Shown one piece after another: positions 4,436-6,636 of a stretch of DNA of 10,962 bases. The position numbers and the translations under genes were made by a program. The notes under the pieces are model-generated. The model was not told the DNA's origin, searched no databases, and worked only from the letters and a program-made list of their open reading frames with translations. Each line of letters opens with the position of its first letter. Within the stretch, counting starts at the first letter, position 1. Source of the DNA: Candidatus Thorarchaeota archaeon (GTDB lineage: Archaea > Asgardarchaeota > Thorarchaeia > Thorarchaeales > Thorarchaeaceae). The stretch is from contig JAEOTX010000014.1 of assembly GCA_016839605.1 (NCBI GenBank), forward strand, positions 1 to 10,962, in the 5' to 3' direction.

Positions 4436-5398
4436 TCAATCAGATGCAGATGCTTCAGCAAACCGAGCATCCGGTGCCTGACTCATCCGCTCGAGAATCT
4501 CTTGAATGTGTCCTATCATTTCCTCAGGGACCTCAACAAGATTCTCCTTGGGTCGCTCTTCTAATACACGCAACACCTTTTCCAGACTGTTCTTCTTCAT
4601 TTGGCGACAAACCGCCCTATCATAGGCAGGAATGATCTTCTTGTCCGGGTGCTTCGCCTGTAGCTGTTCTACTAAACCTAGTTCAGTAGCGATAACGAAC
4701 GTTTCGTCAGGTGACTCAGCAACGATTTTGACCATTGCTCCGGTTGACCCAACGATATCCGCTGCATCTTGAACTTCTTCGGGACACTCCGGATGCACGA
4801 TGACTACAGCTTCTGGGTATTCCTCTCTAAGCAGCGTAATCTGAGCAATGTCAAACTGTTGATGAACATAACAATGACCTCTGGGTTCAAGGTCTATTAG
4901 CTCTACACCGGTCTGACGACGGACATAGTCAGCAAGGTTCTTGTCTGGGCCAAATAGCACTCTTGCTACTCCAAGACCAGAAACGACTTTCACTGCATTC
5001 CCAGAAGTGCATATGACGTCGGACACTGACTTTGTTTCTGCGGTCGTATTAACATAGACAACAACTGGAGCATCAGGATACTCCTCTTTCAATGCTCTTA
5101 CCTTATCAGCGCTTACCCACGCTGCTAGGGGGCAGATGGCGTCGGTTGCGGGGATATAGACAGGAGTCTTCTCATTTAGGACTGCAGCCATCTCCGCCAT
5201 GAACTTGACTCCCGCAAAAATGATCATATCATAGCCACTGACTTCTGCAGACTTCTTGGCAAGCTGCAGGGAATCACCGACGAAATCAGCAACTTCCTGA
5301 ATCTCCATCGGTTGGTAATTATGAGCAAGCAGCAATGCATTTCGCACCTTCTTCAGCGCGAGTACCTTTTGCTGCATCTCACTCATCTTGCTAGTCAA
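4436..5398 (-). CDS. nadA: Quinolinate synthase A ([4Fe-4S])
   Basis: LAHNYQ, GDSLQL, GVKFMAE, YVNT, CTSGNA, GPDKNL, HPEC, GST and ATELG motifs, with three cluster cysteines (AICPLA, HCYVH, VCRQMK). TTG start with GGGTG 7 nt upstream. Confidence 0.97.
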   Translation of the reverse strand: MTSKMSEMQQKVLALKKVRNALLLAHNYQPMEIQEVADFVGDSLQLAKKSAEVSGYDMIIFAGVKFMAEMAAVLNEKTPVYIPATDAICPLAAWVSADKVRALKEEYPDAPVVVYVNTTAETKSVSDVICTSGNAVKVVSGLGVARVLFGPDKNLADYVRRQTGVELIDLEPRGHCYVHQQFDIAQITLLREEYPEAVVIVHPECPEEVQDAADIVGSTGAMVKIVAESPDETFVIATELGLVEQLQAKHPDKKIIPAYDRAVCRQMKKNSLEKVLRVLEERPKENLVEVPEEMIGHIQEILERMSQAPDARFAEASASD

Positions 5399-5450
5399 CC
5401 AATTGCACCCATGTTATTCCACTATCTTTGGGTTATTAACCAAATCACAA

Positions 5451-5496
5451 ACGGCAAACATTGACTTGCATATATTCGTTTGGCAACATTTGCCGT
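5451..5496. promoter_or_regulatory. Paired palindromic boxes (candidate operators) in the nadA / NADK-wHTH divergent region
   Basis: GGCAA-ACA-TTGAC (5453-5465) and GGCAA-CAT-TTGCC (5482-5494). The outer ACGGCAAA (5451-5458) and TTTGCCGT (5489-5496) form a perfect 8-bp inverted repeat. TATATT lies between them at 5471-5476. Confidence 0.5.
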
Positions 5497-5580
5497 ACTC
5501 ACGTGCTTTTGCCAGCTTGATTTAAGAGGCCGAAAACGACCAGAGAAATTGTACTCTCTAACGCATGGGAGGATATCACT

Positions 5581-6636
5581 ACGAAAATCGGCGTCGTATC
5601 TGGATTAGAGTCAAGCATGATAGATGACACTCGTGAAATCATGCGAATACTACAATCTAGTGACATCGATCTCCAAATCGAGGAAAAGACTGGTCAGGCT
5701 CTCAAGAAGAAGGGCACCCCAATCAGGAAACTCGATTCGGACCTAATCATCATCGTTGGTTCAGACAAATCCCTACTCAACTCCTTGCTCCAGCTGAGTA
5801 ACTCAACTATACCGCTTTTGCCTGTATCATCTAAAGGGCAGCCTGACTTTCTCTTTGACGTGACTGCATCCACTTTCGAAGATGTGGTCCCAGACCTTAT
5901 AGAAGAACGGTGGACAGAAGATCGAAGGAATAGACTTAGAGTGACTATCGCCGGAAAGTCAAGCCCTCCACTTCTTAATGATGTAGGAATCTTTGCCAGG
6001 CGTAGCGCGACTCTAATTCGCTATTCGCTCCATCTTGATAACGAACGGTTCTGGAAAGATGGCAGTGATGGTCTGATCATAGCAACTCCAACCGGAAGCA
6101 CTGCCTACTCCATGAGTGTTGGTGGCCCTGTCGTGCTTCCTCCTGCTCACGTGTTGACAGTAATTCCGGTAAACAGTGTAAATCCCGCTAGAAGACCCCT
6201 GGTTGTGGATGACAACACGGTCATCGAGATCCGGGATTTGTCTAGCTCTGTTGCTATAGAAGCGGTTCTTGACGGGCAATTGCGTAGAAAGGTCGATGGC
6301 GGACCAGTACTTATCGAGAGAGCGGAATCCGATGCTGTCTTTGTCAAGCTGTCGGAAGAACGTGTAGCTGCATTGAGAGGGAAACTCCACCAAATGACAG
6401 AGGCATTTGGAGACCTAGCGCAAGACCTTCCTCCAAGTGCCAAACTTGTGCTCAAGGTGCTTGAATATCAAGGACAATTGACGCAAAAAGAGATCGTTGA
6501 GGAAACCTTGCTCCCAGCCAGAACAGTGAGATACGCCCTCTCGATTCTAATCTCAGATGGACTGGTCTCGAAGCGAGTGTCTCTAAGGGACAGTCGACAA
6601 GGGCTCTATAGAATGGCAAATAACAGGAGTGACTGA
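5581..6636 (+). CDS. NAD-kinase-fold protein fused to a C-terminal winged helix-turn-helix; start uncertain (first in-frame ATG at 5617, homologous sequence from about 5581)
   Basis: LNDV (NE/D motif) and DGLIIATPTGSTAYSMSVGGP plus LDGQ identify the NAD kinase fold, but GGDGT is replaced by GSDKS. From 6427, LPPSAKLVLKVLEYQGQLTQKEIVEETLLPARTVRYAL...DSRQGLY is an archaeal MarR/TrmB-like wHTH. Confidence 0.9.
   Translation, partial: TKIGVVSGLESSMIDDTREIMRILQSSDIDLQIEEKTGQALKKKGTPIRKLDSDLIIIVGSDKSLLNSLLQLSNSTIPLLPVSSKGQPDFLFDVTASTFEDVVPDLIEERWTEDRRNRLRVTIAGKSSPPLLNDVGIFARRSATLIRYSLHLDNERFWKDGSDGLIIATPTGSTAYSMSVGGPVVLPPAHVLTVIPVNSVNPARRPLVVDDNTVIEIRDLSSSVAIEAVLDGQLRRKVDGGPVLIERAESDAVFVKLSEERVAALRGKLHQMTEAFGDLAQDLPPSAKLVLKVLEYQGQLTQKEIVEETLLPARTVRYALSILISDGLVSKRVSLRDSRQGLYRMANNRSD

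Follow-up and report, generated by a model that had tools for sequence, protein, structure and literature searches.

A candidate transcription factor of NAD metabolism built on the NAD kinase fold, and its predicted operator in two archaeal phyla

Regulators of nicotinamide adenine dinucleotide (NAD) biosynthesis often pair a DNA-binding domain with an enzyme-derived sensor, and local regulators often lie divergent from their targets. We analysed a window of 10,962 bp, the entire contig JAEOTX010000014.1 (C65) of a 3.08-Mb, 80%-complete Candidatus Thorarchaeota bin, in which a gene encoding an NAD kinase fold fused to a winged helix-turn-helix (wHTH) faces nadA, the quinolinate synthase gene. 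Comparative sequence analysis points to this fusion as a probable one-component transcription factor of NAD metabolism, derived from a duplicated NAD kinase, that would activate its targets and sense a dinucleotide. Among the parts of this proposal, DNA binding by the fusion protein is very likely, and a pyridine dinucleotide is the likely effector.

The single open frame (5581-6636) contains Pfam domains NAD_kinase (residues 34-109, E=0.002), NAD_kinase_C (132-256, E=2.8e-20) and a MarR_2 wHTH (282-340, E=6.1e-7). Its AlphaFold model (predicted local distance difference test score, 85.5) consists of an entire two-domain NAD kinase fold, a low-confidence linker (266-280) and the wHTH, and the best Foldseek matches are the NAD kinases 7mh7 and 7qvs (E=1e-26). 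An initial sequence-only reading had described an NAD kinase fold with an in-frame wHTH, which the Pfam domains, the model and Foldseek confirm; it had also called the kinase fold complete, which holds for the fold itself but not for the kinase motifs, where GSDK replaces GGDG and GQPDFL replaces GxLGFL while ND and TPTGSTAY are retained. NCBIfam NAD-kinase models align to residues 3-270 with every score well under its cut-off; the best is NF002984 (141 bits versus a cut-off of 326), a weak test given that the canonical NAD kinase of the same genome also falls under it (209 bits). In the wHTH, residues R316, T317, R319, D339 and R341 are invariant in 36 orthologues.

Predicted operator, linkage to NAD genes and promoter geometry

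Relatives of the fusion are encoded in at least 581 genome stretches from Asgard archaea and Thermoproteota, and the closest homologues among the matches listed are labelled Candidatus Thorarchaeota. A full-length match was found in about 95 of 301 sampled Thermoproteota (around one-third), including relatives of marine and soil ammonia oxidisers. Within Asgard archaea the fusion is present in most Thorarchaeaceae and in families f2, f5, f8, f15, f16 and f20; it was not found in f9, a large family. Of 39 informative Thorarchaeaceae loci, 38 place it divergent from nadA, an arrangement that synteny alone could explain because the whole Thorarchaeaceae block (HAD phosphatase, nadA, beta-CASP protein, GTPase) is syntenic. 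Outside this family the other neighbours vary and NAD genes recur next to the fusion: nadA in f2 and f15, nadA-nadC with nadX nearby in f5, nicotinate phosphoribosyltransferase in f20 and f16 (accompanied in f16 by a nicotinamidase-like gene), and nadA-nadC-nadX in Brockarchaeota, Thermofilaceae and other Thermoprotei. In two more Thermoproteota, nadA follows the fusion on the strand that encodes it. Adjacency to NAD genes occurs in about ten lineages besides Thorarchaeaceae. No NAD gene lies within 5 kb of the fusion in Nitrososphaeria, Terraquivivens, Methanodesulfokora, Vulcanisaeta, Metallosphaera and several Desulfurococcales. Asgard families f22 and f14 also encode a very divergent NAD-kinase-wHTH fusion (L050:3106-6207 and L051:752-1864); the L050 copy precedes an SPFH/Band 7 gene and one uncharacterised gene, and its neighbourhood contains no NAD gene.

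In the Thorarchaeaceae intergenic alignment we found two islands of the form GGCAA-N3-TTGCC between two TATA-like elements (Table 1), with starts separated by 29 bp in 35 loci and by 30 bp in the remaining three of 38. The distal site is the sole intergenic exact copy in the genome and carries the top genome-wide matrix score (20.3). No other tandem site was found in the intergenic DNA of this genome, including the region upstream of nadC on contig C106; nadX, pncB and pncA were not found with the queries used in this 80%-complete bin.

We then scored regions up to 200 nucleotides (nt) upstream of nadA with an operator matrix trained on Thorarchaeota alone, at a threshold of at least 10 bits. 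A site was present in 20 of 25 Thermoproteota with the fusion, compared to 1.1% in shuffles. In two control loci (L311 and L312) we identified divergent fusions lacking a site; counting them as positives raised that group from 25 to 27 and reduced the controls from 25 to 23. After regrouping, the matrix finds a site in 20 of 27 fusion-bearing Thermoproteota, mostly in trans, versus 1 of 23 loci without the fusion, where the single hit lies inside upstream coding sequence. When the fusion is encoded elsewhere in the genome, the site is present in 18 of 21 cases. None of 34 Asgard genomes without a full-length fusion match has a matrix site upstream of nadA. The pncB genes of Njordarchaeia, Methanodesulfokora and Vulcanisaeta likewise have sites upstream.

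Loss of the fusion gives a further comparison. Thirteen Thorarchaeaceae genomes have lost it from the locus, and in five of these a profile search found no full-length copy elsewhere. In the 13 genomes the distal palindrome is gone and a strong proximal site remains in only two, versus 38 of 38 loci with the fusion. These comparisons support the interpretation of the sequence-only reading: linkage to NAD genes, salvage genes included, is conserved across lineages, a palindromic operator co-varies with the fusion in cis and in trans, and hundreds of independent assemblies, complete genomes included, carry the fusion.

Two loci are of separate interest. At L190:2897-3361 (genome G155, Thorarchaeaceae), a deletion took the kinase domain and the fusion promoter; what is left of the wHTH is damaged and the distal site is degenerate, marking a fusion loss in progress. 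At L300:120-132 (G350), a nadX-nadA-nadC operon is preceded by a perfect site and, 30 bp downstream of that site, its degenerate partner; this bin has three nadA copies and no strong fusion match, and is probably mixed or incomplete.

Between the best site's end and the predicted nadA TTAA lie 13 nt (proximal) or 42-44 nt (distal) at 35 of 38 Thorarchaeaceae loci; at 21 Thermoproteota loci the interval is 13 or 43-45 nt. At pncB promoters, the site stands 12-13 nt before a TATA-like box in most cases, including Njordarchaeia and Methanodesulfokora. The position of the TFB recognition element (BRE) is pyrimidine-rich, with an A fraction of 0.24-0.25; for 281 generic upstream regions of this genome that fraction is about 0.36. 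Archaeal activators bind DNA upstream of the BRE and the TATA box at promoters with weak BREs (PMC5937170), and a fixed distance just upstream of a weak BRE is the arrangement of TFB-recruiting activators of the TFB-RF1 type, which the predicted promoter elements here share. Because of this fixed spacing, the fusion is probably an activator of NAD genes rather than a repressor. In contrast, sites lie anywhere from 6 to 42 nt from the TATA box of the fusion itself, with these values clustering loosely at helical intervals. Since the spacing is fixed only on the nadA side, autoregulation is poorly supported, though it may have a minor effect. The sequence-only reading had assigned the protein control of de novo NAD synthesis and of its own operon. 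Linkage to nadA and the operator support the former, with a predicted regulon that extends to salvage (nicotinate phosphoribosyltransferase and nicotinamidase-like genes); the latter fares poorly in light of the 6-42 bp range.

A mechanism consistent with these data would have the fusion wHTH bind GGCAA-N3-TTGCC, with two wHTH pairs, in two dimers or an NAD-kinase-type tetramer, occupying tandem sites 29-30 bp apart. Apo protein at the proximal site, 12-13 nt upstream of TATA and just outside the weak BRE, would help TFB and TBP load, activating nadA here and nadA-nadC-nadX or the salvage gene pncB elsewhere. The kinase fold would serve as a pyridine-dinucleotide sensor, so that plentiful NAD(H) or NADP(H) would bind and lower activation in a feedback loop.

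Remodelled kinase domain and competing explanations

The catalytic centre of NAD kinases is the Asp of GGDG, and their contacts to NAD are made by NE/D and conserved region II (PMC9763689). One of the 119 distinct fusions has GGDG intact; 109 keep the Asp, and the next Gly is Arg or Lys in about 90. Several orthologues have lost the Asp (GGAA, GGTG, GHTG), while NE/ND and T-x-x-GS-[TS]-AY persist. As a guess, the basic residue after the Asp may favour a 2'-phosphate. The Thorarchaeota genome that contains the window encodes a separate canonical NAD kinase on contig C203 with GGDG, NE and GNVGFL. A GGDG kinase coexists with the fusion in all five Thermoproteota tested, and the canonical kinase is retained where the fusion is lost. 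Because GGDG is not preserved, we do not class the fusion as an active NAD kinase, and this lineage has probably lost most kinase activity; given the Njordarchaeia and L035 exceptions described below, some lineages may retain it. In a quick tree, 56 fusions fall on one side of a branch from 24 canonical kinases with a support of 57, by which a single origin is neither shown nor rejected. A predicted complex of two fusion copies with NADP scored 0.19 and was not used as evidence.

The fusion at L035:5177-6205 (G007, family f8) has GGDG and GNLGFL intact. No standard canonical NAD kinase was found in its 96%-complete genome, and nadA lies elsewhere in that genome with a site upstream (L155). This protein is the best candidate for a bifunctional enzyme-regulator.

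Several observations weigh against a dinucleotide-sensing activator that has left catalysis behind. Fifteen of the trans cases come from related Nitrososphaeria and many positive genomes are close kin, so that the counts overstate independence and separate lineages number about ten. In seven of the 27 fusion-bearing Thermoproteota we found no site upstream of nadA, including four in which the fusion adjoins it (L294, L296, L311, L312), and found none before Metallosphaera pncB. Heimdallarchaeum-type genomes (f5) have one site, at about 90-100 nt from what is likely the TATA box of nadA. The catalytic Asp is retained in most fusions, as counted above, and in three Njordarchaeia bins (87-91% complete) we found no second NAD kinase, only the fusion. 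Finally, nearly all of the 13 fusion-less Thorarchaeaceae retain the proximal half-site, TTGCC at 13 nt before TTAA, so part of the operator may act for another factor or for the core promoter. This retention may reflect slow decay, recognition by one of the stand-alone wHTH paralogues, or a function in the core promoter, and this last would favour repression. We rejected TTGCC-13-TTAA as a general Thorarchaeota promoter element, as it occurs in one of 281 upstream regions, that of nadA itself.

That persistent half-site, together with at least six stand-alone wHTH paralogues in the genome, would suit an explanation in which a different protein reads the palindromes and the fusion is merely a co-inherited neighbour. 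However, full palindromes track the fusion across phyla even when its gene is far away, and the invariant recognition helix RTVR matches the invariant site, making a different reader improbable. Chance synteny or misassembly could account for the wholly syntenic Thorarchaeaceae block, but the number of independent assemblies and the recurrence of NAD genes alone across lineages leave it a negligible probability, and we count it as refuted. Repression through the same protein and operator, with ligand-bound regulator covering the BRE-adjacent region, blocking TFB and shutting NAD genes off at high NAD(P), deserves more weight: the proximal site ends just 13 nt from TATA, where a large NAD-kinase tetramer could hinder TFB, and nadA promoters outlive gene loss and keep their TATA-proximal block, as would be simpler had a repressor been lost. 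The bacterial NAD regulators NadR, NrtR and NiaR are themselves repressors. Yet the sites never overlap the BRE, TATA or start region, and a distance held within about 1-2 nt across two phyla beside poor BREs is the pattern of activators (PMC5937170), so we judge repression unlikely. Somewhat less doubtful, and compatible with a dinucleotide-sensing activator, is a bifunctional protein that remains an active NAD(H) kinase while regulating, as RbkR does for riboflavin, with catalysis or the ATP/NADP state setting DNA binding. The retained Asp, the intact motifs of L035 and the fusion-only Njordarchaeia bins speak for it; the basic substitution after the Asp, the remodelled GxLGFL, orthologues without the Asp and the coexisting canonical kinase, retained when the fusion is lost, speak against it.

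Gene start and neighbouring features

The true start of the fusion is probably ACG 5581, because this codon aligns with ATG and TTG starts of orthologues and is preceded by GGAGG. Across 59 loci, the first aligned codon is ACG in 26, ATG in 26, TTG in five, TCG in one and AAG in one. ACG in this column is confined to Thorarchaeaceae (26 of about 39 loci), where it follows a strong GGAGG. We rejected ATG 5617 as the start, since it truncates the first beta strand of the fold and orthologues give it no support. Most database entries for the Thorarchaeaceae gene either begin 12 codons too late or use spurious codons upstream. Such an ACG start could hold regulator levels low. With it, the gap to nadA spans 5399-5580 (182 bp), in agreement with the head-to-head arrangement across about 180 bp described by the sequence-only reading.

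Table 1. Features of the 10,962-bp window; functional assignments of regulatory elements are predictions
Feature	Coordinates	Strand	Details
Putative sensor domain of NAD kinase fold	5581..6370	+	GSDK 5758-5769 replacing GGDG; ND 5977-5982; TPTGSTAY 6085-6108
C-terminal wHTH	6424..6615	+	LPPSAK...; recognition helix RTVR 6520-6531; DxRQ wing; MarR_2 E=6.1e-7
Ribosome binding site GGAGG (5568-5572) and probable non-canonical start ACG (5581-5583)	5568..5583	+	Orthologue alignment
nadA, quinolinate synthase, predicted target	4436..5398	-	320 residues, TTG start, ribosome binding site GGTG 5406-5409; Pfam NadA E=3.6e-105; TIGR00550 and NF006878 above cut-off
Predicted operator site 1, nadA-proximal	5453..5465	.	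Imperfect palindrome GGCAAACATTGAC; conserved half ends 13 nt upstream of nadA TTAA
Predicted operator site 2, distal	5482..5494	.	Perfect palindrome GGCAACATTTGCC; 29 bp from site 1, 42 nt from nadA TTAA
Predicted nadA TATA box	5432..5439	-	TTAATAAC, preceded by non-consensus BRE TGATTTGG; TTAA core conserved in Thorarchaeaceae intergenic alignment
Predicted TATA box of fusion/beta-CASP transcript	5521..5526	+	TTTAAG; conserved ATTTAAG in alignment; retained in fusion-loss genomes
beta-CASP metallo-hydrolase	6638..8779	+	Downstream of fusion, probably co-transcribed; neighbour in Thorarchaeia only; aCPSF-like, under all NCBIfam cut-offs; N-terminal ~320 residues without Pfam match
GTPase-domain protein	8790..10733	-	647 residues; Arf/Roc/Ras-type small GTPase domain at residues 122-261; N-terminal and long C-terminal regions without Pfam match
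Na/Ca-exchanger-family transporter	1284..2468	-	Thorarchaeaceae synteny only
Membrane protein	2541..3098	-	185 residues, no Pfam match; Thorarchaeaceae synteny only
Soluble pyrophosphatase	3201..3725		Thorarchaeaceae synteny only
HAD phosphatase	3772..4431		Convergent on nadA; Thorarchaeaceae synteny only

The beta-CASP gene stays divergent from nadA once the fusion is deleted. We rejected it, the HAD phosphatase and the pyrophosphatase as regulon members, as their synteny is confined to Thorarchaeia. The position of the GTPase-domain protein is conserved in Thorarchaeia, with a paralogous fragment adjoining it in some genomes. Rfam found no family within the window. Elsewhere in this genome (G000), C43:2314-3483 encodes a third NAD-kinase-like protein of about 375 residues with GGDG intact and a different C-terminal half, and small stand-alone wHTH genes of the same family as the fusion wHTH, at least six in number, lie on contigs C22, C76, C196, C218, C251 and C255.

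Relation to known regulators

The closest analogue is RbkR, the archaeal riboflavin kinase/MarR-type wHTH regulator (Rodionova et al., 2017; PMC5397151). Both join a cofactor-pathway kinase to a wHTH in archaea and are associated with palindromic sites upstream of promoter elements, often in tandem for RbkR, and RbkR is likewise a predicted activator of the biosynthesis and uptake genes of its pathway (PMC5397151). Palindromes upstream of pathway promoters co-occur with the fusion, as in that system. However, RbkR has an N-terminal wHTH followed by a CTP-dependent riboflavin kinase domain, whereas the fusion has NAD kinase domains followed by a C-terminal wHTH. RbkR is also the sole, active kinase of its genome, whereas the fusion carries an altered GGDG beside a separate canonical kinase, and RbkR motifs vary by lineage while the single motif of the fusion is kept across two phyla. 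With the NAD(+) kinase family (PF01513/PF20143; PDB 7mh7, 1suw), the fusion shares the two-domain fold, NE/D, the TPTGSTAY region and the catalytic Asp (motifs as in PMC9763689); GSDK, GQPDFL, the extra wHTH and scores under every NCBIfam NAD-kinase cut-off set it apart.

Bacterial NrtR (Nudix-wHTH; PMC2330246), NiaR (HTH-3H; PMC2330245) and NadR (HTH-NMN adenylyltransferase-kinase) similarly couple an enzyme-derived or ligand-binding sensor to a DNA-binding domain for nadA/nadC/pncB-type genes, and NrtR has the sensor first and the wHTH last, as in the fusion. Their sensor folds are unrelated, they act at bacterial promoters and they are described as repressors; the fusion has no Pfam or NCBIfam match to Nudix, 3H or NMN adenylyltransferase/nicotinamide riboside kinase sensor domains. 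In promoter geometry the fusion resembles TFB-RF1 (PF1088) of Pyrococcus furiosus, which binds a 13-nt palindrome whose distance to the weak BRE and TATA box downstream of it is conserved; TFB-RF1 differs in its motif (TCTG-N5-CAGA), its targets and its lack of an NAD-kinase domain (PMC5937170). Because its sensor fold differs from those of RbkR and of the bacterial NAD regulators, we assign the fusion to neither and regard it as a new family of an already known regulator type. Full-text searches, which did not extend to most subscription journals, found no description of an NAD kinase-HTH regulator.

On balance, we lean towards an ancient pseudo-NAD-kinase regulator that predates the Asgard/Thermoproteota split, senses NAD(H)/NADP(H), and activates de novo and salvage genes through one unchanged 13-bp operator and geometry across two phyla; it would be the first dedicated archaeal NAD transcription factor and the first sensor with an NAD kinase fold. 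These data provide archaea, including about one-third of sampled Thermoproteota and several Asgard lineages, with a candidate regulator of NAD synthesis that has a named operator, targets and a predicted sign. They also correct a common database label, under which homologues of the fusion appear as NAD kinases, sugar kinases or MarR regulators. As a predicted regulator, the family would complete a series of archaeal vitamin regulators built from pathway enzymes, and it offers a direct test of how the NAD kinase fold turns into a sensor.

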